A DNA stretch of 64,000 nucleotides from assembly GCA_037441385.1 (NCBI GenBank), contig JBBISH010000022.1:2-64001 (forward strand), read 5' to 3'. How positions within the stretch are numbered: position 1 is the first letter of the stretch; every line of letters starts with the position of its first letter. The DNA comes from Myxococcales bacterium (GTDB lineage Bacteria > Myxococcota_A > UBA9042). Under the pieces are notes generated by a model. The model had not been told where the DNA came from. It did not search any database and worked only from the letters and a program-made list of their open reading frames with translations. The position numbers were made by a program, and so were the translations under genes. Positions 28,659 through 46,824 of the stretch are shown here, in pieces.

Positions 28659-28698
28659 TCTCTGTAGGGACTCCGTTTGAATCGGCTCGACGACCTCA

Positions 28699-28830
28699 TA
28701 CCCATTCCGTCCGAATCGGATCGAAAACTCGGGCAATTCTTCGGGCCCGAACCGGGGTCGCCGCCTGATTCTCGCCAGTTGCAGAACGGGTCAGAAAGGC
28801 TGTACAGGCGCGAATCAGGTGGGGTGCGTA
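28699..28830 (+). mobile_element. 132-bp structured repeat, copy 2
   Basis: Exactly 132 bp with TA...TA ends. It is flanked by TCA at 28696-28698 and 28831-28833. Confidence 0.8.
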
Positions 28831-30673: not shown

Positions 30674-31753
30674 GTGGAGCCAACGACCAAAGACGCATCC
30701 CGCCGGCAAACGGTGCTACTGGTCGACGACGCACCAGAGAACCTTAGTATTCTAAGCGCTTTCCTCTCTGGGCAGTATCGCATCAAGGCTGCCAATTCCG
30801 GTGCGAACGCGCTGCGTATTTGTTCTTCCAACGAGCTGCCCGACCTGATCCTCCTGGACCTGATGATGCCCGAGCTCGACGGCTTCGAGGTCTGCAAACG
30901 GCTCAAGGACGACCCGCGCACCCGCGAAATTCCCGTCATCTTCGTCACGGCTGCCACCGACTCGGTCGACGAAGCCCACGGCTTGGCCGTGGGCGCGGTG
31001 GACTACATCACCAAACCGTTCAGTCCGGCAGTCGTGCTCGAACGAGTCCGCGTGCACCTGGAGCTCAAGCGCGTCCGCGATCGCCTCAACCGGCTTGGCC
31101 GGCACTTCTCGTCGTACCTGTCGTCCGAGGTGGCGAGCGGCATCCTGCGCGGCGCGATCACGCAAGGTGTGGTCAACCAACGCAAACCACTGACGATCTT
31201 CTTCTCCGACATCGTCGAGTTCACCAAGCAAACGGCGGCCCTGCCCCCCGAGCGCATGGCGCGGATGCTCAACGGCTACTTTGACGCGATGGCCGACATC
31301 GTCAGCCAGCACCATGGCACGCTGGACAAGTACATTGGCGACGCTTGCATGGTGTTCTTTGGCGATCCCACCTCGCGCGGCGCCGCCGAGGACGCCCGCT
31401 CGTGCGTGCGGATGGCGCTGGAAATGCAGTGTAAGATCGACGAGTTGCAAACATTTTGGAAAGGCCATGGCAGCGGCGCCCCGCTGTCGGTGCGCATGGG
31501 GATTGCCACGGGGCTGTGCGCCGTCGGCAACTTTGGCAGCACCCACCAGTTGGCCTACACCGTCATGGGGACGGCAGTGAACTTGGCAGCCCGGCTGCAG
31601 GCGCACGCCATGCCGGGGCGAGTGCTCATCTCGGAAGAAACCTATGCCCTTGTAGGTGCGGACTTTCCCTGCCGGGCCTTGCCCGAGATCCGGGTCAAGG
31701 GACTGGACGAGCCCGTCGTCGCCTACGAGGTTGAGGACGCTGGTCCGCGATGA
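30674..31753 (+). CDS. Response-regulator receiver fused to a class III adenylate/guanylate cyclase
   Basis: Receiver motifs VLLVDDAPENL...DLILLDLMMPELDG...PVIFVTA. Cyclase motifs LTIFFSDIVEFT...KYIGDACMVFFG...GNFGS...YTVMGTAVNLAARL. GTG start with GGAGAG upstream. Confidence 0.85.
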   Translation: MEPTTKDASRRQTVLLVDDAPENLSILSAFLSGQYRIKAANSGANALRICSSNELPDLILLDLMMPELDGFEVCKRLKDDPRTREIPVIFVTAATDSVDEAHGLAVGAVDYITKPFSPAVVLERVRVHLELKRVRDRLNRLGRHFSSYLSSEVASGILRGAITQGVVNQRKPLTIFFSDIVEFTKQTAALPPERMARMLNGYFDAMADIVSQHHGTLDKYIGDACMVFFGDPTSRGAAEDARSCVRMALEMQCKIDELQTFWKGHGSGAPLSVRMGIATGLCAVGNFGSTHQLAYTVMGTAVNLAARLQAHAMPGRVLISEETYALVGADFPCRALPEIRVKGLDEPVVAYEVEDAGPR

Positions 31754-33855
31754 CACTGCTCCTTTGGCTCTTGGCCGGATCGGCACTCACCGCGCTGATC
31801 GCGCTGGCCCTGTGGCGGCAGCGGTCCCAGGTCCTGCAGCGCGCCGCCGATCAGGTTCAACAGAGCCTCAGCCAGGCCCAGGCCGACAACGCCCAGCTCA
31901 AACAAGCCCTTGAAGCCGCCGTCCAAGAAGCTGCCGCAGCACGGACCAGCGAGGTCGCGCAACTGGAGCAGTGCCGCGACGACTTGGAAAAGAAAGTCGC
32001 CGAGCGCACTTCGGAACTAGCGGCGGCGCAACGGTTGGCCGAGGCCGCGAATCAGGCCAAGAGCGCGTTCTTGGCCAACATGAGCCACGAAATCCGCACG
32101 CCGCTCAACGCCATCATCGGTCAGGCGCACGTGCTCGGCACCCAGTCGATGCCGCCAAAGCAGGCCGAGCGGCTGCAAAAGATCGAGCGGTCGGCCCGCC
32201 ACCTGCTGTCGATCGTCAACGATGTGCTGGACCTGTCGAAGATCGAGGCGGGCAAGCTGCAGGTCACCCAGGCAGATTTCGACCTGCACGACTGCTTGGT
32301 AGCCGTGCGCGATCTGGTGGTGGGGCAAGCGGCCGACAAAGGTCTGCAAGTTCATATGGACGTCCAGGCGGGCGTGCCGCAGTTCGTCTCTGGCGATGGG
32401 TTGCGCATCAGCCAGGTCATGCTCAATTTCGCCAGCAATGCTGTGAAATTCACTCAGCACGGCAGCGTGACGCTCCGCGTGCGGCGCTTGGCCGTCGATG
32501 GGCCCAAGGTCTGGCTCCGTTTCGAGGTCCAAGACACGGGCATCGGCATCCCGCCCGCCGAAAAAGAGCGCTTGTTTCAGCCGTTTGAGCAGGCAGACCT
32601 TACCATTGCGCGCAAGTACGGCGGAACTGGCCTGGGTTTGGCCATCTCGCATCGCCTGGTCGACATGCTGGCCGGCAAGCTGGGTCTGGAAAGCCAAGAA
32701 AATGATGGCAGTACGTTTTGGTTCGAGGTTCCGTTGGGAGTCGCGTCGCCGCTCGCCGCCGCCGAGCTCCGCCGCCGCCAGTCCTACCCCCGACTTCCGC
32801 CGGTGCGCGCCGACATGGTGCGCATCCTCGTCGTCGAGGACGACCTGTTCAACCAAGAGGTGGCCGTCGATCTGCTGCAACCGCAGGGTTTTGTGGTCGA
32901 CGTGGCCGGCAATGGCGCGGTCGCCGTCGAGATGGCAACCAAGCAACAGTATGCCTTGATCCTGATGGACATTCAGATGCCGGTCATGGACGGCCTGGCG
33001 GCGACGCGGGCGCTCCGTGCGCTGGCCAACTATGCCCGAACCCCCATCGTCGCGATGACGGCCAACACCTTTGCCGACGACCAGGCGGCCTGTAGTGCCG
33101 CGGGAATGAATGACTTTGTGGCCAAGCCCATCGACCCGCGCGCCCTGCTCGAGACGGCGTGCCGCTGGACTGGCGTTGACCTGCCCGACAACTTGGAGAC
33201 GCGCACGCCCGCTGCGCAGCAAGGCACCCAAGAATTGCGCGCTCAGCTGGGCTCCATTGCCGGGCTGACGGCCGAGGCCGGGCTGGCGGTGCATCAGGGC
33301 GATTGGCGGCGCTATGCCAGGTTCCTCCAGCGGTTTTCGACCGAACGTGCCGACACCGTGGTCAAGCTGCGGGCCGAGATTGCTGGACAGCAATGGTTGG
33401 ATGCGCGCCGCACCGTCCACACCCTAAAGGGCCTGGCCGGGACGCTGGGGGCCCTGCGCCTGCAACACGCCGCGGCTACGGTCGAATCGGCCCTGCTGGA
33501 TCCGCACCAGCGCACCGACTTGACCGGACAGCTGGCCGACCTGGACGTCGAGCTGTCGGCTCTGATCCATGCGCTGCAAGTGCACCTGCCCGAACGCGAA
33601 GAGGAACTGCGGCCGGCCAGCGTTGACTGGGCCCAGGCGGCGCATGTGTGCGAAGAGCTTGCGAATCTGCTGGCACAAGACGACACGGGTGCGATCGACC
33701 TGTACAACGAGCACGCCGAACTGCTGCGCAACGCGCTGACCACCGCGGCCCCGCGCATCGAAGCGGCACTGCAAGGCTTTGACTTCGAGCGTGCGGCCGG
33801 GCTGCTCCGGGTAGCCCGCCTGTCGCAGTATCAGCTACAGAGCAAGACTTCGTGA
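31750..33855 (+). CDS. Hybrid sensor histidine kinase (TM, coiled coil, HisKA, HATPase, receiver, HPt)
   Basis: Motifs FLANMSHEIRTPLN, GGTGLGLAIS, ILVVEDDLFNQ...LILMDIQMPVMDG and HTLKGLAGTLG. ATGA start/stop overlap with the cyclase gene. Confidence 0.85.
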   Translation: MTLLLWLLAGSALTALIALALWRQRSQVLQRAADQVQQSLSQAQADNAQLKQALEAAVQEAAAARTSEVAQLEQCRDDLEKKVAERTSELAAAQRLAEAANQAKSAFLANMSHEIRTPLNAIIGQAHVLGTQSMPPKQAERLQKIERSARHLLSIVNDVLDLSKIEAGKLQVTQADFDLHDCLVAVRDLVVGQAADKGLQVHMDVQAGVPQFVSGDGLRISQVMLNFASNAVKFTQHGSVTLRVRRLAVDGPKVWLRFEVQDTGIGIPPAEKERLFQPFEQADLTIARKYGGTGLGLAISHRLVDMLAGKLGLESQENDGSTFWFEVPLGVASPLAAAELRRRQSYPRLPPVRADMVRILVVEDDLFNQEVAVDLLQPQGFVVDVAGNGAVAVEMATKQQYALILMDIQMPVMDGLAATRALRALANYARTPIVAMTANTFADDQAACSAAGMNDFVAKPIDPRALLETACRWTGVDLPDNLETRTPAAQQGTQELRAQLGSIAGLTAEAGLAVHQGDWRRYARFLQRFSTERADTVVKLRAEIAGQQWLDARRTVHTLKGLAGTLGALRLQHAAATVESALLDPHQRTDLTGQLADLDVELSALIHALQVHLPEREEELRPASVDWAQAAHVCEELANLLAQDDTGAIDLYNEHAELLRNALTTAAPRIEAALQGFDFERAAGLLRVARLSQYQLQSKTS

Positions 33856-33988
33856 CCGCAGTTCCGCTCGAATCGGCACGAAAAACTTGGGCAGGTCTTC
33901 GGGTCCAAACCGGGGTCCCCGCCAGATTTTCGCCAGTTGTAGACCAGGCCACAGCAACCGTACACGCGTGAACCAGGCGGGGTGCGCA
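33856..33988 (+). mobile_element. Degenerate copy of the 132-bp repeat
   Basis: Co-linear with the family (GTTCCG.TCGAATCGG.ACGAAAAACT.GGGCA...CGGGGTCCCCGCC.GATT.TCGCCAGTTG.AGA...CAGGCGGGGTGCG), but the ends and arms are eroded and there are no TCA flanks. Confidence 0.55.
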
Positions 33989-34182
33989 GCGGGCCGGTTC
34001 CGGCAGATTCCGCATGTCGCGTGCAGTGTGCCCGCGGCTCAGCAGCAGGATGCCCAACCGGCCGCGGCGGCTTGCAGGCCAAAACTGCGACCTTTTTGAC
34101 GAAAGGCCACCGACACCGTAGCTTTGCACGAGCGTTGCCGTGCGCGCCCACTGCTTTTGGGTGTGGCCGGGCAGCGCAGGGG

Positions 34183-35010
34183 ATGCCCTTGAACCCGTTT
34201 GCCGCCAACCCGCAGCGCTTTTTCAAGCACCACACGCCGCGCTGCGAATTCAAGTACCAAATTACTGCAGAGCAGATGCCGGCGATCAAGGCAGCGATCT
34301 CGGCGTATTGCGATGTGGACCCGTTTGTGGGCGACGCCGGCCGCTACACCATCACCAGTCTGTACTTGGACTCCGCCGACCGGCGGTTCTACTGGGCGAC
34401 CGAAAACCAGGTCCACGCGCGCATGAAGCTGCGGGTGCGCACCTATGGGTTGGCTTGCGAGGGGCCCGTCTTCTTGGAGATCAAACGACGTTTTGGCGAC
34501 GCCCAAAGCAAAAGTCGCGTGCAGGTGCCGCGGGATCAGTGGCAAGCCGCCGCAGTGCCCGGCGGGAGCGAGGTCTTCAAGCACTGGAAGCTGGACGGCA
34601 AAAGGATGGGGATCGTCAAGGACTTCTCTGCCATCACCGCCGGCTATGCCCTGGAGCCGGTTTGCTGTGTCCGCTACGACCGTGACCCCTATGTCGGCCG
34701 GCTGAATCCCGACATTCGCATCACCTTTGACCAGCGGATTCGCACCGTTGCCTCAAGCGACTGGACGTTGCACCCGCACGAAGTCGACTATTTGCCGGTG
34801 GACTATCCGTACAACTTTGGCGCTCCGGAGCCCCGCTTGGTGCTCGAAATCAAGTTCGATATGCAGTTGCCAATTTGGCTCATCGATCTGGTGCGCACGT
34901 TTGACTTGAAGCGCGAGTCGTACGCCAAGTACGTGACCTGCGTGAACCGTTTGCAGGACGACCACCTGCGCTATCGCACGGACCTGCGCGGCCCGCGGTG
35001 GGAGGCGTGA
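34183..35010 (+). CDS. VTC-domain protein (polyphosphate-polymerase-like tunnel domain)
   Basis: CEFKYQI...YTITSLYLDS...RMKLRVRTY...VFLEIKRR...RITFD...LEIKF matches the VTC/CYTH-like pattern. The ATG is at 34183. Confidence 0.7.
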   Translation: MPLNPFAANPQRFFKHHTPRCEFKYQITAEQMPAIKAAISAYCDVDPFVGDAGRYTITSLYLDSADRRFYWATENQVHARMKLRVRTYGLACEGPVFLEIKRRFGDAQSKSRVQVPRDQWQAAAVPGGSEVFKHWKLDGKRMGIVKDFSAITAGYALEPVCCVRYDRDPYVGRLNPDIRITFDQRIRTVASSDWTLHPHEVDYLPVDYPYNFGAPEPRLVLEIKFDMQLPIWLIDLVRTFDLKRESYAKYVTCVNRLQDDHLRYRTDLRGPRWEA

Positions 35011-35696
35011 TGGAAGACCTGCTCCGCCTTGCTTTGGCCCCCGATCCCGCATTGCCGTGGCAGACCGTCACGTTCTGCGTGTTGATGTCGTTCATCCTGT
35101 CGACGGTGCTGGCCCAGGTCTACATTTGGACCCATCGCGGCCTGTCGTACTCGCGGTCGTATGTCCAGACGCTCATTTTGGGAGCTGTGGTGTCGGCCAC
35201 GTTGATGACGGCGGTGGGCAACAACCTGGCCCGCGGCATTGGTATTTTGGGCACCCTGGCGCTGATTCGCTTTCGCTCCACGGTCAAGGACCCGCGCGAC
35301 ATGGTGTTCATCTTTGCCTCGCTGGCCACGGGCATTTCGATGGGCGTGCGCTCTTACGGCGCGGGCGTCACCGGGTCGCTGATCTTTGCCGCGGTGGCCC
35401 TGGCTTTGCACTGGTCCGAGTACGGGGCGCGAGTGCGCTACGACGGCCTGCTGCGTTTTGCCATCGCCGCCCATCCCGACAACGACAGTCGCTTGCGGAA
35501 TCTGCTGGACCGGCACTGCCAACGGTTCGTGCTCGTGTCGCTCCGCGAGGTGGAACAAGGGCATCGCGCCGAGCACAACTATCACGTCAAACTCCGCGAC
35601 CCTGCGCAGCAATCCCTGTTCGTTCAAGAGGTCATGGCGGTGCCTGGGGTGCGCGGGGTGTCCTTCTACCTGAACGATGCGACCGAGGAGGTCTAG
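35010..35696 (+). CDS. DUF4956-family membrane protein
   Basis: N-terminal TM helices, then the IRFRSTVKDPRDMVFIF signature. ATGA overlap with the VTC gene. Confidence 0.7.
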   Translation: MEDLLRLALAPDPALPWQTVTFCVLMSFILSTVLAQVYIWTHRGLSYSRSYVQTLILGAVVSATLMTAVGNNLARGIGILGTLALIRFRSTVKDPRDMVFIFASLATGISMGVRSYGAGVTGSLIFAAVALALHWSEYGARVRYDGLLRFAIAAHPDNDSRLRNLLDRHCQRFVLVSLREVEQGHRAEHNYHVKLRDPAQQSLFVQEVMAVPGVRGVSFYLNDATEEV

Positions 35697-35702
35697 CACG
35701 CC

Positions 35703-38021
35703 GTGGCCGACGAAGTGACCCAGCTCCAGGCCGACGCGCCGTATCAGCCCCCAACAGGGCGGATTCGGCCGCGGATGCGGTTGCCTACGGGCTGGCTCCT
35801 GTGGCTGGTCTTCGCCGCGGCGATGGCGGTGTCGTTCAAGATCTACTTTGAGTCGCCCGATTTTTCGAGCATTCCTGGCATGGGCGAGGTGCTCGAGAGT
35901 CACGCCGCCGCCGCGGAAGTGGCGCGCGTGCAAGAAGTTCGGGTGTCGGTGGGCCAGCGGGTGCGGGTGGGCCAGGTCATGGTGATGTTCGATCCGGCGC
36001 CGCTGGACCTAGAGCTCGCCCAAGCCCGCGACGAATTGGGCAAAGCTCAGGCCCAGTTGGCAGCGACTACCCTGGCCCTGCGGCGCGATTACCTCAGCGA
36101 AGAGCGCCAGTTCGAGAAATCGATCGACGTGACCGACATGGGCCGGATTGCCGCGGCGGTCGAGGCCGAGGTTGACCGCGCCGAAGCCGCGAGCCTGAAA
36201 CTCCGTGTGCACTGGTGGGAGGGGCTGGTCGCCCAGAAACTGGTGACTGAACAGGCGCTTGTCGATCTCAAGGCGCAGCTGGCCGGGGTCGAGAGCCGCA
36301 TCAAAGCCCGCGAAAGCGCGATTTCGGCATGGCAAGAGCGCCTGGCCCGCGTCGAAAAGCGCTGGAAAGACTGGCGCTTGGCGATTCCGTCGGCCGATGC
36401 CGACCCCGAGCAGCGCGACCTGGGGCCCCTGCGGGCCAACGTGGCGGTGGCGCAGGCGGCCTTGGCGCGGGTCGAGGCGCGCCGCCAGCACATGGTGGTT
36501 CGCTCGGCGGTAGACGGCGTGGTGTCGCGCGTGCTGATGCAGCCGGGCGACGTGGCGACGCCGGGACAGACGGTGGTGGTGCTGCGCCCGCCATCGGTGC
36601 GGCGCGTGATCGCCTATGCCCTGGACACTGTGGCGCGTCGGCTGCGGGTGGGGGCGATGGTCCAGGTGCAGCGCCGCGACGGTACGGGCCGGATGCTCAA
36701 GGGCCATGTCGAAGGCTTTGGCGGTGTGGCGCCGATTCCGCTGCAGTTGCAAGCAGTTCCCGAACGTGCGCCGCTGGCGGCCGAAGAGATTGTGGTCGTG
36801 CTCGAAGAGGGGACGCTGCTGCCGGGCGAGCCTGTGGATGTCGCGTTCATGAGCGGTGTCTTGAGCTACCCCGTCGATCAGCCGTCCGAGGCCGCTTCCG
36901 TCGAGCCCGCCACCACGCCAGCGCCTGCGGCCGAGCCGACCCAGCCGACCGCCAGTGCGCTGCCCGCAGCCGAACCTGCGGCGGCCACGGCGACGGCCCC
37001 TGCGCCTGGTCCTGGCAGCGCGGCCGTGCCAACTCCGGCTCCGGCCACGGCCGAGGCGGCGGCCGAGGCACTCGAAGTGCCTGCAGCGCTTCGGCAAATG
37101 TCACGTCTGGAGCCGTCTGGCCTGCTATGGCTGCCCGAGCGGCAGAATTACCTGGTGATCAGCGACGACACGGGCTTCCACGCTCAAAACGACCGCGCGC
37201 CGTGGTTGTTCGAGGTGGACACGAAGGGCCATTTTGCGGCAGCGCCGGTCGTTCTGGCCGGAGCGCCGGAATTCACCGACCTGGAGTCCATCGCCCGCGG
37301 GCCCGACGGGACCATCTGGATCCTGGCGTCGCAGTCGGTCAGCCGCAAGGGCAAGCGGTCCGAGGCGCGCAGTCAGTTGATGCGGGTGCGAGTGCACGGC
37401 AACGCGCTGGAAGTCGAAGGGCATGCCGCCCTGGCGGTGGCTCTGGGGCGCGCGCGCGACCCGCAATGGCTCGATAGTCTGGGCCTGGCTGCCCGCGATC
37501 CCCACTACCGCGAAGGCGCCGCCGGCTTTGACCGGACTTTGGACATCGAGGGCTTGGCCGTTGATGGCCCGGCGCTGCTGCTGGGCCTAAAGCGGCCGCT
37601 GGATAGTCAAGGGCGGGCCCTGATCCTGCGCCTTGAGCATCCCGAGCGGCTGCTGACCACGGGCCGGCTGCACAAAGACGACCTGCGCATTTGGGGGCGC
37701 GTGCCGCTGCAAGCCGGGCCGCCCAGCGCCGGCATGGCCGCGGGTATCGCTGATCTTTTGCCCTTGCCGGATGGTCGGTTGGCCGTGCTGGCGACCGCGC
37801 TGGGCGACGCCGACGAGGGCCGCGCCGAAATCGGGATGCACAGCGCTCTTTACCTGGTCGATCGGCCGGGTGCTGACGGCGCGATGCAGCCGCACTTGCT
37901 TAGGCGGATCATAGGGTTTCATGCCGAAGGCGTGGCTCTGGAACCCGATGGCCGCGGTCTGCGCCTCATCTTTGACGAGGGCGAGGCCCTGCCGCATTGG
38001 CTGCGGGCGCCGTTGCCCTGA
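35703..38021 (+). CDS. Membrane-anchored HlyD-type membrane-fusion domain fused through an Ala/Pro linker to a propeller-like (DUF3616/phytase-like) domain
   Basis: It has a TM helix, a lipoyl-like hairpin (VSVGQRVRVGQVMVMFD / VVSRVLMQPGDVATPGQTVVVL), a long coiled coil and a ~70-aa A/P linker. Repeated motifs follow: DLESIARGPDGTIWIL, LDIEGLAVDG and FHAEGVALEPDG. Confidence 0.65.
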   Translation: MADEVTQLQADAPYQPPTGRIRPRMRLPTGWLLWLVFAAAMAVSFKIYFESPDFSSIPGMGEVLESHAAAAEVARVQEVRVSVGQRVRVGQVMVMFDPAPLDLELAQARDELGKAQAQLAATTLALRRDYLSEERQFEKSIDVTDMGRIAAAVEAEVDRAEAASLKLRVHWWEGLVAQKLVTEQALVDLKAQLAGVESRIKARESAISAWQERLARVEKRWKDWRLAIPSADADPEQRDLGPLRANVAVAQAALARVEARRQHMVVRSAVDGVVSRVLMQPGDVATPGQTVVVLRPPSVRRVIAYALDTVARRLRVGAMVQVQRRDGTGRMLKGHVEGFGGVAPIPLQLQAVPERAPLAAEEIVVVLEEGTLLPGEPVDVAFMSGVLSYPVDQPSEAASVEPATTPAPAAEPTQPTASALPAAEPAAATATAPAPGPGSAAVPTPAPATAEAAAEALEVPAALRQMSRLEPSGLLWLPERQNYLVISDDTGFHAQNDRAPWLFEVDTKGHFAAAPVVLAGAPEFTDLESIARGPDGTIWILASQSVSRKGKRSEARSQLMRVRVHGNALEVEGHAALAVALGRARDPQWLDSLGLAARDPHYREGAAGFDRTLDIEGLAVDGPALLLGLKRPLDSQGRALILRLEHPERLLTTGRLHKDDLRIWGRVPLQAGPPSAGMAAGIADLLPLPDGRLAVLATALGDADEGRAEIGMHSALYLVDRPGADGAMQPHLLRRIIGFHAEGVALEPDGRGLRLIFDEGEALPHWLRAPLP

Positions 38022-38048: not shown

Positions 38049-38741
38049 CTACGGCTGGTTGGCCGCGCCGGGCGTTGGGCTGGCGAGCTGGAACGGCCCC
38101 GAGCCATTTGGCACGCGAGCCCAGCTTTGCGTATCCGCGGTGAGCACGCCAGCCGGCAGCGGCGCGCTATCCAGGATCGTCTTGCCCGAAAGGAGGAAGA
38201 TCGTGTCGCCCGCGCCCGCGCTGACTTTGAAGGCGGCCTGGAAGCAGGTCGCGGGGCCGGTGGTCAGGCACTTGGCCTGCAGACCGACAGCGGGCGTCTT
38301 CTTGCCGCCCACGATGAGCAAGTGTTCGCCGGCCGCCAGCGAAGTGCCGCTGGGGAAAGTCAGCGCTTCGGCCAGACGGGCGCAGCCCGCGTCGTCGCGG
38401 TCGGCCACGATCATGCCGGATAGGTCGGTGGCTTTGCTGCCGTTGTTGCGCAGTTCGACCCAGTCGCTGCCTTTGCCTTGGATTTCGTTGATGACCACGT
38501 TGCTGGGATTGGCCGCGGGCACAAACGCGCAGCCGCTCACTTCGGAAGTGGTGTCTTTGCCGGCGGTGTCGCTGCTGCCGCTGTCCGAACCGGCGGTGTC
38601 CGCAGGCGCGGTGTCCAAAGTTGCGGCGTCGCCGGCGGATGCGTCGGCGCTACTGGCGGTCGTCGTGGAGCTGCAGCCGGCGATCTGCGCGGCGCCGAGC
38701 AGGGCGGCCAGCAAGTAGGCAAGGGCAGGGCGAGCGGGCAT
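38049..38741 (-). CDS. Lipoprotein with a lamin-tail domain (LTD)
   Basis: Lipobox AQIAGC and a Ser/Asp/Ala-rich linker. The LTD signature is VVINEIQGKGSDWVELRNNGSKATDLSGMIV. Confidence 0.7.
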   Translation of the reverse strand: MPARPALAYLLAALLGAAQIAGCSSTTTASSADASAGDAATLDTAPADTAGSDSGSSDTAGKDTTSEVSGCAFVPAANPSNVVINEIQGKGSDWVELRNNGSKATDLSGMIVADRDDAGCARLAEALTFPSGTSLAAGEHLLIVGGKKTPAVGLQAKCLTTGPATCFQAAFKVSAGAGDTIFLLSGKTILDSAPLPAGVLTADTQSWARVPNGSGPFQLASPTPGAANQP

Positions 38742-38915: not shown

Positions 38916-39938
38916 ATGCTCGACGTCGGTTCGATTGCCAAGGTGGAACTGCATCGCCATCTAGAGGGTTCGCTTCGCCTGGCCACCGTGGCCGAGATTG
39001 TGACCAAGCTGCGCCTGCCCGAAGCGGCGTTGACCGCCGACCAGTTGGCACAGCGCGCCCAGGTGCTGCAGCCGATGGAGTCGCTGGAAGCGGTGCTCGC
39101 GGCGTTCGACGTGTTCCAACGCTGCTTTGCCTCCCTCGAGTTGGTCGAGCGGCTGGCCTACGAGGCCGTGCAAGACGCGGCGCGCGACCATGTGCGGCTG
39201 CTCGAGCTGCGGTTTTCGCCCGACTTCATGACGCGGACTGCCCGCTTGGACTGGGACAAGGCCATGGCGGCGCTGGTGCGCGGGGTACGGCGGGCGGCGG
39301 CCGAGTTCGACGTGGCGGTGGGCCTCATTGCCATCGCCAGCCGTGGCTACGGCCTGCAATCGGCTATGCAGACTGCGGAATTTGCTGTGCGCTGGCGCCA
39401 CGAGCTGGTGGGCTTCGATTTGGCCGACAACGAAGTGCGCTATGCTTCGGCGGAATTTGCGCCGGCCGTGGATCGCGTGCGCGCCGCCGGCCTGCCCGTG
39501 ACCGTGCATTCGGGTGAGTCCACCGGGCCCGATCATGTGGCCGACACCCTGAATGCCCTGCGCGCCCGCCGGATTGGCCATGGGGTCGCCGTGGGCCAAG
39601 ATGCGCAGCTGGCCGAGCGGATGATCCGCGAGCGCGTCACGATCGAGTCGTGCCCCACCTCGAACGTGCGGACTCGGGCGGTGCCCAGCTTTGCCGAGCA
39701 CCCGGCGCGGCGCCTGTTGCGAGCTGGCGTGCCGCTGACGCTGTGTTCGGACGATCCGGGGCTGTTTGCGATTACGCTGTCGGACGAGCTGCGGGTGGCG
39801 CGCGATGAGCTGGGCTTTACCGACGTGGACCTAGCGCGGGCCACGCAACATGGCTTGGCGGCGTCCTTTCTGCCAGCCGAGCAAGTGGCGGCAGTCAGGC
39901 GACGGCACTTTGGCTGGGTGGCAAAGCTGCTTCCGTAG
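38916..39938 (+). CDS. add: Adenosine deaminase
   Basis: Motifs KVELHRHLEGS, TVHSGE and SDDPGLF. The ATG at 38916 has GAGGTG upstream. Confidence 0.85.
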   Translation: MLDVGSIAKVELHRHLEGSLRLATVAEIVTKLRLPEAALTADQLAQRAQVLQPMESLEAVLAAFDVFQRCFASLELVERLAYEAVQDAARDHVRLLELRFSPDFMTRTARLDWDKAMAALVRGVRRAAAEFDVAVGLIAIASRGYGLQSAMQTAEFAVRWRHELVGFDLADNEVRYASAEFAPAVDRVRAAGLPVTVHSGESTGPDHVADTLNALRARRIGHGVAVGQDAQLAERMIRERVTIESCPTSNVRTRAVPSFAEHPARRLLRAGVPLTLCSDDPGLFAITLSDELRVARDELGFTDVDLARATQHGLAASFLPAEQVAAVRRRHFGWVAKLLP

Positions 39939-42900
39939 GCTCGGCGGCGGCGTGCTCGGCGTCGCGGCGCTTCATCAGCATGAACACCGCCGGATAGACC
40001 AGCAATTCCAACACGAACGACGTCGCCAGCCCGCCCACCATCGGCGCGGCGATGCGCTTCATCACGTCCGCACCCGCGCCCGTCGACCACATGATCGGCA
40101 GCAGGCCCATGAACGCCGCCGTCACCGTCATGGCCTTGGGCCGCACACGCTTGACTGCGCCGTGGACGATGGCCTCGACCAGGCCGCCGGGCTTGCGCAG
40201 CTCGCCGTTCTGCTTGGCCTCGTCGTACGACAGCTCCAGGAACAGCAGCATGAACACGCCGGTCTCGGCGTCCAGGCCCATCAGCGCGATCATCCCCACC
40301 CACACCGCGATCGACAGGTTGTAACCCAGCACGTACAGGAGCCAAATCGCGCCGATGGCCGAGAAGGGTACCGCCAGCATCACCAGCGTCGCCTTGGCCG
40401 CCGACTTGGTGTTGGCGTACAGCAGGCCAAAGATCAACAGCAGGGCAAACGGTACCACCAGGCGCAGGCGCTCGCTGACCCGCTCCATGTTCTCGAATTG
40501 GCCGCTCCAGCCCAGGGTGTAGCCGGGCGGCACCTTCACGGCGTTCTTGACCGCCGCCTGCGCCGCGGCCACAAACCGGCCCACGTCGTACTTGCTGGTG
40601 TCGAAGTCCAAGAAGACGTAACCGGTCAGCAGCCCACCGTCGTCGCGGATCATCGACGCGCCCTCGGCCAGACGAACGTCAGCAATTTCAGACAGTAGAA
40701 TTTGCCCCCCACTTGGCAAGTTGACCAGCACCCTACGCAATGAGTCAAGGTCCTCGCGGAAGTCGCGGGCGTAGCGCACGTTGATCCCGTAGCGGGCGCG
40801 CCCCTGCACCGCCACGCCTTGGGCATCGCCGCCGATCGCAGTCATGACCAGCAGGTTGGCGTCGTCGACGGACAGGCCGTAGCGGGCCAGTTGGTCGCGC
40901 TTGACGGCAAAGTCCAGGTAATAGCCGCCGGCGGTGCGCTCGGCAAACACGCTGCGGGTGCCCTCGACCTTGCGGAGCGCCGCCTCGATCTGCTGCGAGA
41001 GTTTGTCGATCACCGCCAGATCGGCGCCACTGACCTTGATGCCCACTGGCGTGCGAATCCCCGTCGACAGCATGTCCAGGCGCGCCTTGATCGGCATGGT
41101 CCAGGCATTGGTCACGCCGGGCATCTGCAGGGCCTTGTCCAGTTCGGCCACCAACTCGTCTTGGCTGATGTGCTCGGGCCAAATCGGTCGCAGCAGCGGC
41201 TTGCACCAGTCAGGCACGATATCGCTGTACCAGCGCGGCTTTTCGCGCCATTGCGACTCGGGCTTCAGGACGATGGTGGTCTCCATCATCGAAAACGGCG
41301 CCGGGTCCGTGGCGGTCTCGGCCCGGCCGGCCTTGCCAAACACGGTCTCGACCTCGGGGAACACCTGGATCACGCGGTCCTGGATCTGCAGGGCCCGCAG
41401 CGCCTCGGTCGACGACATGCCCGGCAGCGACGACGGCATGTACAGCAGCGAGCCCTCGTTCAGCGGCGGCATGAATTCGCTGCCCAATTTCAGGTAGATC
41501 GGCACCGTCGCCGCCACCAGCGCCAGCGACAGCGCCACCGTCGTCTTGGGCCAGCGCAGCACCAACCGGCACGGACCGTCGTACAGTTTCTGCAGAATGC
41601 GGCTGATCGGGTGCAATTCCTCGGCGTAATAGGTGCCCACCAAGATCTTGGTCGCCAACCAGCGCAGCGGCCGCGGCCCGCGGCCAAATGGCCTCATGCG
41701 CGAAAACAACATGCGCAACGCCGGATCCAGCGTGATGGCCAGCAGCGCGGCGATCGCCATCGCTAGGTTCTTGGACCAGGCCAACGGCTTGAAAAGGCGC
41801 CCCTCTTGGTCCACCAGCGTGAACACGGGCAAGAACGCCGCCGCAATCACCAGCAGCGAGAAGAAGACCGACGGCCCCACCTCCAGCAGCGCCTCCAAGC
41901 GCACCTTGTGGAAGTCGCCCTTGCTGCCCTCGGCCTGCCAAATCTGCAGCTTTTTGTACGCGTTCTCTACCTCGACGATGGCGCCGTCGACCAACACGCC
42001 CACCGAGATGGCGATGCCGGCCAGCGACATCACGTTGGCCGTCAGCCCCATCGCCGCCATGGGCACGAACGCCAGCGCCACGCTGACCGGAATGGTGATG
42101 ATCGGCACCACTGCCGAGGGAATGTGCCACAAAAACAGCAAGATAATCGCCGAAACGATCAGGATCTCTTCGATCAGCTTGTCGCTCACCGTGTCGATGG
42201 CGCGCTCGATCAGCTCGGAGCGGTCGTAGGTCGTGACGATCTCGGTGCCGGCCGGCAGCGAAGGCTTGATCTCGTCCAGCTTTTTCTTGACGCGATCGAT
42301 GACCTGCAGCGCGTTCTCGCCCTGGCGCATCACCACGATGCCGCCCACCACGTCGCCGTCGCCGCCCAGATCGGCCACGCCGCGCCGCAGATCCGGGCCC
42401 AGCTCCACCTTGGCCACGTCGCGCAGTTGCACCGGAGTGCCGTTCTTGGCGCGCAGGGCGATCTGCTCCAAGTCCGCCTTCTGCTTGACATAACCGCGCC
42501 CGCGCACCATGTATTCGCGCCCGGCCATCTCCACCAGCCGGCCGCCCACGTCGCGGTTGCTGCCGCGCACGGCCTGCACCACCTCGGCCATCGACACGCC
42601 GTAGTTGTTCAGCGCCTCTGGGTTCACGTTGACCTGGTACTGCATGACCTGGCCGCCGATGCTGGCGACCTCGGCCACGCCCGGCACCGCGCCGATGGTG
42701 TAGCGCAGGAACCAGTCTTGGTAACTCCGCAGTTCGTCGTTGCTTTTGTGGCCCGACTTGTCCACCAGCGCGTACTCGAACACCCAGCCGACACTGGTGG
42801 CATCGGGGCCCAGCTCGGTCTGCACGCCCTCTGGCAATTTCGATTGGATCTTGGACAGGTACTCCAGCACGCGGCTGCGCGCCCAGTAGATGTCGGTACC

Positions 42901-43194
42901 GTCCTCGAAGATCACGTACACGTAGCTGTAGCCGAAGTCAGAAAACCCGCGCACTGCCTTGACTTTGGGCGCGCCCAGCAGCGACGTGACCAGCGGGTAG
43001 GTGACCTGATCCTCCAGAATGTCCGGGCTGCGGTCCCACTTGCTGTACAAGATCACTTGCGTGTCGCTCAGATCCGGGATGGCGTCCAGCGGCATGGACC
43101 GCATCGTCCACAGCGAATACACCAGCGCCACCACGGTCACGGCGATGACCAAGAAGCGGTTGTTGGCCGAAAAGGTAATGATACTGCGGATCAC
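39895..43194 (-). CDS. cusA: Heavy-metal efflux RND transporter (CusA/CzcA, HME family)
   Basis: 1099 aa. The N-terminus MIRSIITFSANNRFLVI...AIPDLSDTQVI is typical of CusA. GTG start in a GTGA overlap with cusB. Confidence 0.9.
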   Translation of the reverse strand: MIRSIITFSANNRFLVIAVTVVALVYSLWTMRSMPLDAIPDLSDTQVILYSKWDRSPDILEDQVTYPLVTSLLGAPKVKAVRGFSDFGYSYVYVIFEDGTDIYWARSRVLEYLSKIQSKLPEGVQTELGPDATSVGWVFEYALVDKSGHKSNDELRSYQDWFLRYTIGAVPGVAEVASIGGQVMQYQVNVNPEALNNYGVSMAEVVQAVRGSNRDVGGRLVEMAGREYMVRGRGYVKQKADLEQIALRAKNGTPVQLRDVAKVELGPDLRRGVADLGGDGDVVGGIVVMRQGENALQVIDRVKKKLDEIKPSLPAGTEIVTTYDRSELIERAIDTVSDKLIEEILIVSAIILLFLWHIPSAVVPIITIPVSVALAFVPMAAMGLTANVMSLAGIAISVGVLVDGAIVEVENAYKKLQIWQAEGSKGDFHKVRLEALLEVGPSVFFSLLVIAAAFLPVFTLVDQEGRLFKPLAWSKNLAMAIAALLAITLDPALRMLFSRMRPFGRGPRPLRWLATKILVGTYYAEELHPISRILQKLYDGPCRLVLRWPKTTVALSLALVAATVPIYLKLGSEFMPPLNEGSLLYMPSSLPGMSSTEALRALQIQDRVIQVFPEVETVFGKAGRAETATDPAPFSMMETTIVLKPESQWREKPRWYSDIVPDWCKPLLRPIWPEHISQDELVAELDKALQMPGVTNAWTMPIKARLDMLSTGIRTPVGIKVSGADLAVIDKLSQQIEAALRKVEGTRSVFAERTAGGYYLDFAVKRDQLARYGLSVDDANLLVMTAIGGDAQGVAVQGRARYGINVRYARDFREDLDSLRRVLVNLPSGGQILLSEIADVRLAEGASMIRDDGGLLTGYVFLDFDTSKYDVGRFVAAAQAAVKNAVKVPPGYTLGWSGQFENMERVSERLRLVVPFALLLIFGLLYANTKSAAKATLVMLAVPFSAIGAIWLLYVLGYNLSIAVWVGMIALMGLDAETGVFMLLFLELSYDEAKQNGELRKPGGLVEAIVHGAVKRVRPKAMTVTAAFMGLLPIMWSTGAGADVMKRIAAPMVGGLATSFVLELLVYPAVFMLMKRRDAEHAAAEPTEAALPPSQSAVA

Positions 43195-44561
43195 GGTGCG
43201 CTCCCTGGGGATGCGCTCGGCGAACTGGCCAGCGAGCTGAGCGCGGCTTTCAACCGACTCTCTGAGTCCAGCAAGAACGCCGCGCGCGTAACCACCCGCT
43301 CACCCGCCTGCAAACCACTGACGACTTCGGTGAAATCGCCTGTCGCCGCGCCGGTCTTGATCACGCGGGGCTCGAACTGCCCGCCGTCGCGCTCGACAAA
43401 GACCACCTGCTGGCGGCCCGAGTCCAAGATCGCGTCGCTGGGCACCACCAGCGCCGTGCGGGCCTCGCTCAGCAGTTCGATCTCGCCAAAGGCCTCGGGG
43501 TGCAAGCTTCCGTCCTCGTTGCTGATTTGCACGCGCACCCGCAGCGTGCGGGTCTTGGGGTCCATGGCTGGCTCGATCAGCTTGACCTCGCCTGGATAGG
43601 GCGCATGTCCGCTGCCGGTCAGGCGAAACTGCGCCTTCATGCCCAACTGCACGCGGTCGACGTCGGGGGCGCGCACATCTGCGATCGCCCACAGCTGGCC
43701 CAGGTCGGTCAGATCGAACAAGGGCTCGCCCGCCGCCACCTTGCTGCCCAGGACCGCCGAGGCCGAGGTCACCGTGCCGCTCATCGGGGCGTAGATGGTC
43801 AGTTCGCGTTGCGGTTTGCCCGCTTTGAGCACCGCGGCCACCGTGCCACCGCCCACATCCCACAGAGCTAGGCGCTGACGCGCCGCCTCGCCGAGCTTGC
43901 TGCTCGCCGAACCCGTCGCGGCACTGTCGGCATCGCTCTGCTGCGCCACCAGCAATTCCGTTTCCGCCGCAACCACTTCGGGGCTGTACACGGCCAGCAG
44001 CGGCTGGCCCTTCTTGACAGTCTGGCCCACGGTAGTGATGTGGAGCTTCTCGATGAACCCGTCGAATTTGATGGTCACTCGCCGCACCCGACTTTCGTCC
44101 GCGGCCACGCGCGCGGTGGTGCGCAGCCCGCCGGTCAGGGTCTGCTCGGCAGCCGGCACGGTCCGCACCCCCAGCAACTGCCGGCGCTCGGTCGAGATCT
44201 CCACCGTCTCCAGGCCTTCCGCCGGCGTCGGCGCGCCAGAAAGCGCTGTGGGGGTCGCGTCCAGGGCCGAGTCCTTCGCCACGCCCTTGCCGGCACCCTT
44301 GGTAGGGCCTGACGGGATCGGCACCAACTTCATCCCGCAGATCGGGCAGTTCGAGGCGTGATCGTCGGTATAAGTGGGGTGCATCGGGCAGTGGAAGCGC
44401 GGGCCCGCCGACGCCTCGCCCGCCTTGGCCGCTTCGGTCGCCGCGGTGGGCGCGTGGCCCAAGCGGTACCAGCCCAAGGCGCCCGCGCCCGCGCCCAGCA
44501 GGAACACCAGCACCACCACGAATCCCGGGACGCCGCCTCGTTTTTCGTTTGCCGCAGCCAT
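43191..44561 (-). CDS. cusB: Efflux RND periplasmic adaptor (CusB-like) with an N-terminal heavy-metal-binding domain
   Basis: FHCPMHPTYTDDHASNCPICGMKLVP is the CPMHP...CPxCGM motif. A membrane-fusion-protein core follows. Confidence 0.85.
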   Translation of the reverse strand: MAAANEKRGGVPGFVVVLVFLLGAGAGALGWYRLGHAPTAATEAAKAGEASAGPRFHCPMHPTYTDDHASNCPICGMKLVPIPSGPTKGAGKGVAKDSALDATPTALSGAPTPAEGLETVEISTERRQLLGVRTVPAAEQTLTGGLRTTARVAADESRVRRVTIKFDGFIEKLHITTVGQTVKKGQPLLAVYSPEVVAAETELLVAQQSDADSAATGSASSKLGEAARQRLALWDVGGGTVAAVLKAGKPQRELTIYAPMSGTVTSASAVLGSKVAAGEPLFDLTDLGQLWAIADVRAPDVDRVQLGMKAQFRLTGSGHAPYPGEVKLIEPAMDPKTRTLRVRVQISNEDGSLHPEAFGEIELLSEARTALVVPSDAILDSGRQQVVFVERDGGQFEPRVIKTGAATGDFTEVVSGLQAGERVVTRAAFLLDSESRLKAALSSLASSPSASPGSAP

Positions 44562-44569
44562 CCGTCCCC

Positions 44570-45970
44570 CTACATTGCGCCCATGCCGCTTGCCGGGGCG
44601 TTGCCGCCGCCGTCGCTCGCCGCCGGGGCGCTGGTCGCGCTGGAATTCCCTTTGCCGCCCGCGGATCCGCCCGCCATCGTCGAACCGCCGATCGCCGCCG
44701 TGGCCATGCTGGCGCCGCCGCCGATGCCCTTGGTCGCGCCCAGATCGCCTTCGCGGAGCGCGATCGCCTCAGCGTGCCACTGCACCAGCGTGCCCAAGTA
44801 GCCGCCGCGGTCGGCGTGGACGGCGTTGGCTGCCTGCAGCACCGCCGCCAGCGGAGCCTTGCCTTGCGCGTACTGGCTCAGGGTCGCCTGCAGCGCCGCC
44901 TGGTCGTCTTCGATGATTTGGCTGTACAAGTACAGGGTTTCGCTAGCAGTCCGCAGCTGGGCGATCCGCTCGCGGGTGCGCCAGACCGCCGCTTGCTCCA
45001 CCGACTCCACCGCGCGCTGGGCAGCCGCCCGCTGGTGCATCGCCTCGGCCACCACCCGGTTCTGCCGCGCCCCGCTATGAATCGGTAGGGTAGAGCTGAA
45101 CGAAATCAACCACATCGGCTCCATCATCCCACGGGGCATCAGCCCTGCCGTTACGGCAAAGTCGGGCTCGCGCTCGATCTCGGCCAGGGCGCGTCGCCGC
45201 TCGGCCTGGTCCACGCCCGCCTGCGCAATCGCCAACTCGGGGAGATCCTTGGTCAGAGCCGTCACATCGCCGCCCAGCGGCACCTCGCGCGCCAGCGAGG
45301 CCAGCGTCGCCGGACCCTCCACCGGCTGCTGCCACGGGCGCTGAGCCCAGCGGTTGAGCTCGATGCGCCGCAGTTCCACCTGCGATTTTAGGGCAAGCCG
45401 CTGCTGGATCAGGCGCTTTTGCTCGATGCGCGTGCGTAGCACGTCTGCCACGCTGCCCTGGCCGGTCGCCAGCCGCGCCTCGGCCGACTTCTCGGCGTCC
45501 TTCCAAGTCTTCTCTTGCAGATCCAGCAGGCTCAGCTGGTCATTGGCCAAGCCCAGGGCGACCCAGGCCCGCTCGACGTCGGCCTTCAGCGTGCGCTTGA
45601 GGCGATCGGCCTGCGCCCGTAGTCCTGCAAGTCCAGCTTGGGCCAACTGCACCCGCGCCGCCCGTTTGCCTGGAAAGGGCAGGCTCTGCGTCCCCATGAT
45701 CGAGAAGTACGTGGTCATCGACGAGCCGTAGGGCAGCGACGTCAGACCATCGTTCTGGTAGCCGATCGACAAGGTGGGATCCGGCAGCGCCGTCGCCTGC
45801 CCCGGCCGCTCGGCCTCGGCGTGCCAAAGCTCAGTCAGCGCGGCCAGTTCGGGGCTGTGCTCCACCGCATCGCGCATCAGGTCGGCCAGTTCGCCGGCCT
45901 GGGCCGGAACCGCTGTCACCAGCGCGACAGTCGCGGCCAACCACCGGCCCAAGCTAGTGGCCCGCTTCAT
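44570..45970 (-). CDS. cusC: Outer-membrane efflux protein (TolC/CusC family) with a Gly/Ser/Ala/Met-rich C-terminal tail
   Basis: The ATG at 45970 has GGAG upstream. It has a signal peptide and a two-repeat OEP layout. The tail reads GIGGGASMATAAIGGSTMAGGSAGG...APASGMGAM. Confidence 0.8.
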   Translation of the reverse strand: MKRATSLGRWLAATVALVTAVPAQAGELADLMRDAVEHSPELAALTELWHAEAERPGQATALPDPTLSIGYQNDGLTSLPYGSSMTTYFSIMGTQSLPFPGKRAARVQLAQAGLAGLRAQADRLKRTLKADVERAWVALGLANDQLSLLDLQEKTWKDAEKSAEARLATGQGSVADVLRTRIEQKRLIQQRLALKSQVELRRIELNRWAQRPWQQPVEGPATLASLAREVPLGGDVTALTKDLPELAIAQAGVDQAERRRALAEIEREPDFAVTAGLMPRGMMEPMWLISFSSTLPIHSGARQNRVVAEAMHQRAAAQRAVESVEQAAVWRTRERIAQLRTASETLYLYSQIIEDDQAALQATLSQYAQGKAPLAAVLQAANAVHADRGGYLGTLVQWHAEAIALREGDLGATKGIGGGASMATAAIGGSTMAGGSAGGKGNSSATSAPAASDGGGNAPASGMGAM

Positions 45971-46653
45971 GGTTGCTCCGTGCGACTGGCAACACCCAAG
46001 TCCTCGCCGCAGCTCAGCATTTCGTCGCCATAGTAGGGGTTGCGCAACGGCCCGGCCTTCTGCAGCCAGCGGCCCTTGTACATGTCGCAGCTCATCACGT
46101 GGATGCCGCTGAAGTCGTTGGGGTTGTTCTTGGCGTGGGCGATCAACGCCTCCGAGATCGCCACAAAGCGCTGCCGTTGCCCAGGCAGATCCTTGGGGAA
46201 GTCTTGCAGCGCCTTGGCCAAGGCCGGCACTCCCGCCCCTGCTTGCGCCAGTGCCGCTGCGGCGGTCGCGGCTCCGTCCGCTTGGCCGGCGACCAGCGCC
46301 TCGTACAAATCGGCATACGACAGCATGGCTTGCGCGCCTGGGCCCGCCTTGGCTGCTGGCGCCGGTGCCGCCTTGGCGACCGCAGTCTGGCCGGGTTGGC
46401 GGCGCATCAGGAACATGCCGTCGGCCGGGCATTGCCCCGGCTTGTCGCTCACCACGGTGGGATGCCACGGGCACACATACTCGGCGTGCGCGGCTTGTTG
46501 GGCGACCTGGCCGGCTTTGAAGCCAAAACTCCACGCCAGCCAGGCGCTGGCGGCGATCGCGCCGGCAAAGGCCAACAGCGTGGTCAGCCACAACAGCGCC
46601 GAGGATTTGCGCCGCGGCTCGGCTGAATGGAGATGGGTCTGCTGCTCGTCCAC
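45967..46653 (-). CDS. Membrane-anchored variant heavy-metal-binding motif plus DUF3347 domain protein
   Basis: YVCPWHPTVVSDKPGQCPADGM is a variant of CPMHP...CPxCGM. The DUF3347-type C-terminus reads HVMSCDMYKGRWLQ...NPYYGDEMLSCGE. The GTG at 46653 has GGAGGT upstream. ATGA overlap with cusC. Confidence 0.65.
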   Translation of the reverse strand: MDEQQTHLHSAEPRRKSSALLWLTTLLAFAGAIAASAWLAWSFGFKAGQVAQQAAHAEYVCPWHPTVVSDKPGQCPADGMFLMRRQPGQTAVAKAAPAPAAKAGPGAQAMLSYADLYEALVAGQADGAATAAAALAQAGAGVPALAKALQDFPKDLPGQRQRFVAISEALIAHAKNNPNDFSGIHVMSCDMYKGRWLQKAGPLRNPYYGDEMLSCGEDLGVASRTEQP

Positions 46654-46824
46654 GGCTACCTCCGGCGGCGGTGGGGAAGGGTGCTCCGCGCGGTGGCGGG
46701 GCACTCCAGGCGGCGCAACTCGGGTCGCGCCAAGATCATTTCGGGTGATGTGCAAAAACGGCGCCCGTGCCGCTCTGCAGTCAAGCCAACACGGGCCCAG
46801 GAACGGCCGTGCGGCGCAGCGGAG

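Follow-up and report, generated by a model that had tools for sequence, protein, structure and literature searches.

A VTC, DUF4956 and adaptor-propeller cassette of diderm bacteria, described from a Myxococcales genome, and its putative role in handling polyphosphate at the cell envelope

Can bacteria place a phosphate polymer outside their cytoplasm, and with what machinery? PPK enzymes are the accepted makers of bacterial polyphosphate, which is regarded as a cytoplasmic polymer. In yeast, the VTC complex (Vtc4/Vtc3/Vtc1; structures 3g3q, 7ytj and 8i6v) couples a polyphosphate polymerase to translocation across a membrane, with an obligatory membrane-protein partner, and its product enters the vacuole. 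Here we describe a bacterial gene cassette that unites a member of the same enzyme family with an envelope adaptor. It lies in a 64,000-nucleotide stretch of the genome of a Myxococcales bacterium (GenBank assembly GCA_037441385.1, contig JBBISH010000022.1, positions 2 to 64,001 of the forward strand), which we call the window and in whose numbering all window coordinates are given. Three genes at 34183-38021 encode a VTC-domain protein, a DUF4956 inner-membrane protein and a fusion of a HlyD-type adaptor with a beta-propeller; a gene for a lamin-tail-domain (LTD) lipoprotein converges on them. Relatives of this cassette recur across phyla, and its parts are consistent with a putative system that handles polyphosphate at the cell envelope.

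How does this arrangement compare with described systems? It resembles the yeast complex in the Pfam family of its enzyme, in the tunnel residues and in the pairing with a membrane protein. Unlike the yeast complex, it has no SPX domain, its membrane partner is a separate DUF4956 protein without detectable similarity to the three-helix Vtc1-type (DUF202) channel, and its product would cross a diderm envelope by way of an adaptor and a duct. The same VTC and DUF4956 pair is known from Gram-positive bacteria: Pel loci contain genes for CotH, VTC (annotated as "polyphosphate polymerase") and DUF4956 as unexplained accessory genes (10.1101/768473; PMC12345266), and NELoc-2 of Clostridium perfringens carries the same three (PMC2879425). 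A first-pass annotation of the window had described bacterial VTC plus DUF4956 pairs as uncharacterised and as known mainly beside CotH, in agreement with two of these sources (10.1101/768473; PMC12345266). Those loci, however, belong to monoderms and contain no adaptor, propeller or TolC-like outer-membrane protein (OEP family), whereas the window cassette has an envelope-spanning adaptor and its CotH genes are unlinked. The tripartite EmrAB-TolC, MacAB-TolC and HlyBD-TolC systems offer a third comparison. They share with the cassette an N-terminally anchored HlyD-family adaptor with a long hairpin and, in 29 of 35 cassette loci, an adjacent OEP gene; the cassette differs from them in having no linked ATP-binding cassette (ABC), resistance-nodulation-division (RND) or major facilitator superfamily pump, in an adaptor that ends in a five-bladed propeller and, in the window, in the lack of an OEP gene. 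Our literature search found no paper linking VTC to an adaptor or duct, and a polymer-export route of this kind was not found in print.

A linked unit across phyla

All three cassette genes lie on the forward strand with tight junctions. The VTC gene (34183..35010) encodes a protein of 275 amino acids (aa) without a signal peptide, which matches Pfam PF09359 at 128.7 bits (E 3e-37; cut-off 23) over profile positions 2-233 of 235. The DUF4956 gene (35010..35696, with an alternative GTG start at 35007) matches PF16316 at 49 bits (E 7.5e-13; cut-off 30.6), so that both domain calls of the first-pass annotation exceed the Pfam cut-offs. That annotation had also placed an ATGA overlap between these two genes. 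The junction in fact reads GTGATG (35007-35012), giving a GTGA overlap from GTG 35007 or a 1-nt overlap from ATG 35010; the latter start, which stands behind GGAGG, is more likely. After a gap of 6 nt (35697-35702) comes the gene for the 772-aa fusion (35703..38021), with Pfam HlyD_3 and Phytase-like matches. Its transmembrane (TM) anchor is encoded at 35787-35852, the adaptor with its predicted long helical hairpin at about 35880-36887, an Ala/Pro linker at 36888-37064 and the five-bladed propeller at 37065-38018. The gap, anchor, adaptor, linker and propeller had all been anticipated. A spacer of 27 nt separates the fusion gene from the convergent LTD gene (38049..38741, minus strand). The LTD protein, as the earlier annotation had it, is a lipoprotein: it scores 51.5 bits against PF00932 (E 1.5e-13; cut-off 34.3), and its translation begins with a signal peptide carrying the lipobox IAGC.

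How widespread is this combination? A scan of species-representative genomes for the fusion protein, with a six-sequence alignment as the query, returned 36 loci, onto which reference partner proteins were mapped by tblastn; linkage counts refer to the 35 loci that bear the propeller. Adjacent to the fusion gene we found DUF4956 in 32 of the 35, VTC in 30, a TolC-like OEP lipoprotein in 29 and LTD in about 20, and most loci that miss a partner sit at contig ends. The carriers belong to Myxococcota, Binatia, Thermodesulfobacteriota, Bdellovibrionota, Calditrichota, KSB1 and Ignavibacteriota; members of Bdellovibrionales, Caldithrix and Ignavibacteriaceae are among them, as are the cultured Nannocystis pusilla, N. 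radixulma and Nannocystis sp. RBIL2. The same linkage is seen in class-level relatives and on a JGI contig. Two gene orders occur, one running VTC, DUF4956, fusion, OEP, LTD and the other DUF4956, fusion, OEP, VTC, LTD, and they largely track the two main clades of the propeller tree; the linkage therefore survives rearrangement. Because the genes recur together in dozens of unrelated loci, their grouping is far beyond chance. The neighbourhood survey thus bears out the co-occurrence of VTC, DUF4956 and fusion genes, and places the adaptor-propeller and LTD genes in one conserved envelope system, as the first reading had supposed. It also overturns the idea that the adaptor-propeller stands in for CotH, since this protein is the standard adaptor of the cassette type, and it adds the usual fourth partner, the TolC-like outer-membrane lipoprotein, which had been overlooked. 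In related cassettes the slot of the window's LTD gene holds LTD or LTD-CotH lipoproteins. A further trio of lipoprotein genes (u351, u332 and a PPDK_N protein), two of them without a Pfam family and one with PPDK_N, recurs in seven loci. The three proteins of this trio all carry lipoboxes, and the accessory proteins as a whole (OEP, LTD, u351, u332, PPDK_N and CotH) are lipoproteins.

Within the genus of the window, the fusion is full-length in 7 of 10 other genomes and present in pieces in two more. The VTC/DUF4956/fusion trio is intact in six species of the genus at 47-91% identity (DUF4956 82-91%, VTC 56-87%, fusion 49-83%); five of these species (L027, L066-L069) keep all three genes with DUF4956 82-84% identical. 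Another member of the genus, known from a 61%-complete genome (L070), has DUF4956, fusion and OEP genes, and VTC was not found there. VTC, DUF4956 and the adaptor-propeller are a unit kept throughout the genus. Among relatives the fusion is patchily distributed: the family's 13 other genera yielded no copy, and seven genomes of other families in the class have one. In 12 of those 13 genera (G011-G024), VTC genes occur that score less well (E 1e-20 to 1e-33) and are not accompanied by an adaptor-propeller. The genus therefore carries a cassette type unlike that of the rest of its family, a pattern suggestive of transfer or differential loss.

Two loci depart from the common plan. In the Myxococcales genome G029, DUF4956, fusion and OEP genes lie together on contig C37 (L021/L038), the only VTC gene is on another contig (C61:35229-35936), and an NrfD-family membrane protein occupies the usual VTC position. 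On a 3.9-kb metagenome contig (L006, 454-2973), the adaptor-propeller continues in frame into VTC as a single open reading frame of 839 aa, followed by a gene for a PLD-like exported protein. A genuine fusion there would challenge the topology assumed below. We rejected it as such, a lost stop codon being more likely, because it would join a periplasmic propeller to a cytoplasmic enzyme without a TM helix.

The tunnel enzyme, its membrane partner and the adaptor-propeller

Does the bacterial VTC protein retain the catalytic features of its yeast counterpart? A single VTC protein gave no match to PDB sequences in phmmer; a profile of 22 cassette VTCs aligns over the whole catalytic domain of yeast Vtc4 (3g3q) with E 7.6e-18. 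Residues invariant in these 22 proteins align to Vtc4 R196, K200, Y201, R264, R266, Y268, E279, K281 and K294, and further invariant positions to R296, Y359, R361, R373, D377, E426, K428 and K458. In the window protein, K24, R84, R86, K101, Y165, R167, E222 and K249 correspond to Vtc4 K200, R264, R266, K281, Y359, R361, E426 and K458. In the Vtc4 structure paper of Hothorn et al. from 2009, K200, R264, R266, E426 and their neighbours are reported to line the tunnel and to be needed for polymer synthesis. This conservation places the window protein among the triphosphate-tunnel enzymes of the Vtc4 polyphosphate-polymerase family, with a putative synthesis activity. It consists of the VTC domain only, with no SPX domain in Pfam, and is encoded in single copy in its genome. 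Since a separate classical PPK1 is also encoded there, the VTC protein is probably an extra, specialised enzyme.

The DUF4956 protein is less readily placed. An alignment of 24 cassette members contains a highly conserved block, GIGIxGxLAxIRFRTxLRDPRDxxFxF, and in an AlphaFold2 model (pLDDT, the predicted local confidence, 83) five helices lead into a beta-alpha-beta-beta-alpha-beta domain. Judged by the positive-inside rule, both this C-terminal domain and the RFR...DPRD loop would be cytoplasmic, and VTC would dock on that side. Foldseek against the PDB gave weak matches to the C-terminal domain only, first to an ACT domain and second to the C-terminal domain of MgtC (2lqj), at E 3-4e-3; no match to Pfam MgtC appeared at E up to 1. 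We also considered DUF4956 as the counterpart of the yeast Vtc1 channel and dropped the idea, which weak ACT- and MgtC-like fold matches do not support. From the model, DUF4956 looks MgtC-like in its architecture, a TM bundle plus an ACT-like domain, and not like a homologue of the yeast channel. MgtC is known to regulate ATP synthase and PhoR; it is not known as a partner of adaptors. The Streptococcus intermedius DUF4956 homologue SIR_1592 has likewise been described as an MgtC-like membrane domain with an ACT domain, and mutants of SIR_1592 and of the CotH gene SIR_1594 have changed Pel levels and reduced Pel-dependent aggregation (PMC12345266).

The third protein begins as a conventional adaptor. 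Arginines flank its TM anchor on the cytoplasmic side, HlyD_3 scores 31.6 bits (cut-off 22.2), and NCBIfam adaptor families match residues 61-343, none of them reaching its own cut-off. Lipoyl/barrel-sandwich and beta-barrel elements can be recognised in the sequence and alignment, with about 150 helical residues at the position expected for the hairpin. This helical region is not shortened in the window's genus, whose clusters mostly have no OEP gene.

What does the propeller add? The isolated domain matches Phytase-like PF13449 (E 1.4e-10, 42 bits; cut-off 27.6). The first-pass annotation had called it propeller-like and named DUF3616 among the families to search; a propeller it is, and DUF3616 is marginal (21.9 bits against a cut-off of 20.6, over a single stretch of 40 residues), the Phytase-like family being the best match. 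Canonical beta-propeller phytases have six blades, whereas the AlphaFold2 model of the window domain (318 residues; pLDDT 93, predicted TM-score 0.92) has about 20 strands in five. The best solved fold is human calcium-dependent apyrase (CANT1/SCAN-1; 1s18, E 4.6e-7). The two have five blades in common, and the window propeller has a conserved acid at each blade entrance; the resemblance is nevertheless weak, with a TM-score of only 0.49, 14% identity and no sequence-family match. A propeller profile found no relative among the sequences of solved structures, the apyrase family included, and a fold search against viral structures returned generic propellers only, which is uninformative.

The acids that open the blades are E470, E528, E616, D690 (nearly invariant) and E742, and the invariant residues are R468, E470, S472, S487-D488-D489-T490, D526, E528, R552, R556, E616, K630, E742 and D758. 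They are placed where the A strands start and in the loops that follow the second strands (the B-C loops), which read SDDTG, SQS...R552...R556, LKxP (with K630) and FD758. From the strand map of the model, the invariant residues are expected to surround the central tunnel on a single face, where propeller enzymes usually have their active site. The combination of invariant acids with arginines and a lysine suggests a putative metal-dependent site for an anionic, phosphate-rich ligand.

The fusion is also how this propeller usually occurs. Within a collection of 1.84 billion representative proteins, the propeller was detected at E<=1e-30 in 381 clusters, most of them fusions of 640-770 aa, and among 139 newly listed top matches 85 are fusions of at least 600 aa, the short ones being fragments or stand-alone proteins. 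The fusion protein itself has 72 homologous clusters in a large protein collection, mostly of 690-780 aa and mostly from Myxococcota metagenomes. Stand-alone propeller proteins carry signal peptides or lipoboxes, which puts the domain, by prediction, outside the cytoplasm; the fusion is its main form.

A possible route for polyphosphate, without a pump

What would drive a substrate through this adaptor? We searched 48 loci within 5 kb of the core for ABC motifs, for RND genes by tblastn and for proteins with at least eight TM helices. In 47 of the 48 no RND gene was found; the remaining locus, that of the window's closest relative, adjoins a Cus operon. ABC signature motifs occurred in one open reading frame of one locus (L043), 3 kb away and on the opposite strand. 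Proteins with at least eight predicted TM helices lie near 8 of the 48 loci and are heterogeneous; the two examined are an NrfD protein and a Na/H antiporter. No ABC or RND pump is thus conserved with the cassette: DUF4956 is the sole inner-membrane protein to accompany the adaptor, and VTC the sole cytoplasmic enzyme.

The window cluster has no OEP gene, nor do the clusters in most of its genus, so that the window holds a derived copy of the cassette (34183-38021 plus the LTD gene) without an outer-membrane duct gene of its own. In the propeller tree, the forms without an OEP gene (those of this genus, of a Polyangiaceae locus and of a Binatia locus) lie dispersed among forms that have one, a distribution which suggests that the gene was lost or unlinked independently on at least three occasions. 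The genome contains 22 OEP half-domain matches, roughly 11 unlinked proteins, one of them in a neighbouring operon. That operon (39895-47289), convergent and about 2 kb downstream, is a Cus/Czc-type RND efflux operon with an RND pump, a CusB-like adaptor, an OEP protein and HMBD proteins; of the candidate ducts for the OEP-less cassette, the one encoded there (about 44817-45890) lies closest.

Could the cassette in this genus be a decaying, non-functional remnant left after the loss of its duct and CotH partners? The cluster without OEP, the failure of tblastn to find a cassette-type OEP in the genome and the restriction of LTD, within the genus, to the nearest relatives would fit such a history. 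We nevertheless judge it highly improbable: the three genes are intact, tightly coupled and conserved in six species of the genus, the invariant site residues are retained, and OEP-less forms have arisen at least three times.

CotH and PPDK_N proteins complete the inventory. The earlier statement that CotH is absent holds for the cluster and fails for the genome, which encodes two exported CotH lipoproteins on other contigs (C113:143-1897, minus strand; C161:6816-11027, plus strand). The one on C161 has about 900 residues of Cys-rich repeats before its CotH domain. Of the 48 cassettes mapped, at least 9 have CotH fused to LTD or next to it. Across 41 related genomes, VTC and CotH are both present in 30, both absent in 6 and discordant in 5 (Fisher p 3e-4, uncorrected for phylogeny), and three of the five discordant genomes are incomplete or fragmented at the locus. 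The genome's own PPDK_N lipoprotein and one of its partners are likewise on another contig (C98:14629-16500; L065 7617-9599, minus strand), where the PPDK_N gene adjoins that for a 986-aa protein with an SGL-type propeller. A cassette-linked example is at 6440-8488 of L004. PPDK_N is an ATP-grasp, dikinase-type nucleotide-binding domain, and PPDK_N lipoproteins would put an ATP-using fold outside the cytoplasm.

We tentatively read the cassette, with confidence somewhat short of even, as a system in which polyphosphate is made at the inner membrane, passed across the envelope and handled by the propeller. The reading starts from what the comparisons gave directly: domain identities, residue conservation, linkage across phyla, the lack of a conventional pump and the extracytoplasmic signals on the accessory proteins. 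The cytoplasmic VTC protein, as a Vtc4-type triphosphate-tunnel enzyme, would polymerise phosphate from ATP at the inner membrane. It would work on DUF4956, whose basic cytoplasmic loop and ACT-like domain may receive or gate the product, and the TM-anchored HlyD-type adaptor would move the product into the periplasm. In most relatives the polymer would continue to the dedicated TolC-like lipoprotein; in the window's genome it would pass to one of the roughly 11 unlinked OEP proteins, or reach the periplasm only. Near the periplasmic side of the inner membrane, the five-bladed propeller, tethered by its flexible Ala/Pro linker, would bind, trim or transfer the polymer at its metal-and-anion-type site. 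Likely users or binders downstream are the exported lipoproteins, LTD here and LTD-CotH, CotH and PPDK_N in relatives or elsewhere in the genome.

Several points weigh against this scheme. At the position of Vtc4 T198, the bacterial cassette VTCs have an invariant Glu, which restores half of the ExExK motif of hydrolases, and the tunnel residues are largely common to hydrolytic triphosphate-tunnel enzymes. A literature search found no assayed bacterial VTC-domain protein. DUF4956 gave no fold match to the yeast VTC chains (7ytj and 8i6v, both in the searched library), and beyond the weak apyrase match the fold relatives of the propeller are mostly generic propellers, with some enzymes (PhoX, lactonases). 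In the 91%-complete genome of the window, tblastn at E<=1e-5 found no orthologue of the cassette OEP; because the cluster has no OEP gene either, trans-envelope export in this genus is an assumption. Finally, MgtC is considered a regulator rather than a pore, and in S. intermedius a VTC mutant is not named among those with reduced aggregation (PMC12345266).

Much of this would suit an envelope system that is real but whose VTC protein is no polymerase. VTC would then be a triphosphate-tunnel hydrolase or a sensor of nucleotides or polyphosphate and DUF4956 an MgtC-like regulator, while the adaptor, propeller and OEP would handle other cargo or scaffold a periplasmic enzyme, for instance one that modifies surface polysaccharide or protein together with CotH. 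The resemblance of DUF4956 to MgtC and not to a Vtc1-type channel fits this account, as do the Glu found in hydrolytic tunnel enzymes, the effects of the S. intermedius DUF4956 and CotH homologues on Pel, and the persistence of the cassette without a linked duct in this genus and with an unlinked VTC gene in G029. We consider this main rival possible but rather unlikely. The cassette conserves no further transporter or cargo-making enzyme; its one cytoplasmic enzyme, VTC, is linked in 30 of 35 loci; and by sequence that protein is a member of the VTC family and not of CYTH, with K200 retained.

A bolder form of the polyphosphate-export reading seems improbable to us. Here the cassette would be a dedicated diderm secretion system for an inorganic polymer, with VTC and an MgtC-like protein replacing the tripartite pump and feeding polyphosphate to the periplasm and beyond, where it would serve as phosphoryl or energy donor for exported enzymes with no other access to ATP, namely CotH kinases, PPDK_N lipoproteins and the adaptor's calcium-dependent, apyrase-like propeller; in the genus without a duct, delivery would stop at the periplasm.

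If polyphosphate export of either kind is correct, a second, yeast-type synthase would be tied to an envelope-spanning adaptor, and bacteria would deliberately place a phosphate polymer outside the cytoplasm. This would bear on the open question of how exported kinase-fold proteins such as CotH work without ATP, and it may also touch on the chemistry of biofilm matrices, the handling of metals and calcium, and predation by myxobacteria. The propeller, as the only part with an enzyme-like conserved periplasmic site, offers the most direct handle on the cargo, and the cultured Nannocystis carriers make the idea testable. New in this work are the characterisation of the propeller and of its place as the standard adaptor in this cassette branch, the findings that the duct gene was lost repeatedly and that all accessory partners are lipoproteins, and the demotion of the upstream signalling pair to a neighbour.

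The upstream signalling pair and other features of the region

Is the cassette under the control of the genes that precede it? Upstream, on the same strand, lie genes for a receiver domain joined to a class III nucleotide cyclase (30674..31753; Response_reg E 5e-26, Guanylate_cyc E 5.6e-29) and for a hybrid histidine kinase with an N-terminal TM helix, HisKA, HATPase_c, receiver and Hpt domains (31750..33855; Pfam, with BarA/TorS-like NCBIfam matches below their cut-offs). They overlap by ATGA at 31750-31753, as had been described. With these two, all six open reading frames of the first-pass annotation are borne out by Pfam at their coordinates and with their domains, small corrections aside. 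A K...T specificity pair in the cyclase suggests an adenylate cyclase. The G+C content is 62-70% across the region.

The first-pass annotation had taken all five forward-strand genes as one regulated system in which kinase and receiver-cyclase would control the VTC cassette through a cyclic nucleotide (cNMP). Same-strand orientation and close spacing in the window agree with this, and the nearest relatives (L002, L026, L028 and L029; fusion 73-87% identical) reproduce the whole arrangement, including cyclase, kinase and the convergent LTD gene, at 67-88% identity. Only the window and these four, however, have the pair upstream of the cassette. Neither the distant loci nor the genus's five other trio-bearing species (L027, L066-L069) have it there; one of those five has a kinase homologue convergent downstream of the cassette. 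A 327-nt gap with a mobile repeat separates the two groups of genes, and no cNMP-binding regulator is present in the cluster. The five genes are thus two units, the signalling pair and the VTC/DUF4956/adaptor-propeller genes. Because the pair is absent upstream in the other species of the genus and in distant loci, it is a species-level, unrelated neighbour; its control of the cassette is not supported, though conceivable in this lineage, and we regard the single-system explanation as improbable.

Searches for other signals in the region were negative: Rfam gave no match in the window, promoter and terminator scans did no better than on shuffled sequence, and PADLOC anti-phage defence models matched none of the four proteins checked. 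The eroded repeat reported earlier in the 327-nt gap is real. It is a decayed copy (33863..33987) of a dispersed intergenic element of about 132 bp, 78% identical to that element by blastn and 79% identical to 28724-28828. Other copies in the window lie at 28696-28828 (the reference), 6862-6994, 57521-57651 and 59691-59823, and blastn gave 374 hits on 144 of the genome's 221 contigs. Because many copies are 90-98% identical, the repeat looks like a recently active element resembling miniature inverted-repeat transposable elements (MITEs) or repetitive extragenic palindromes (REPs).

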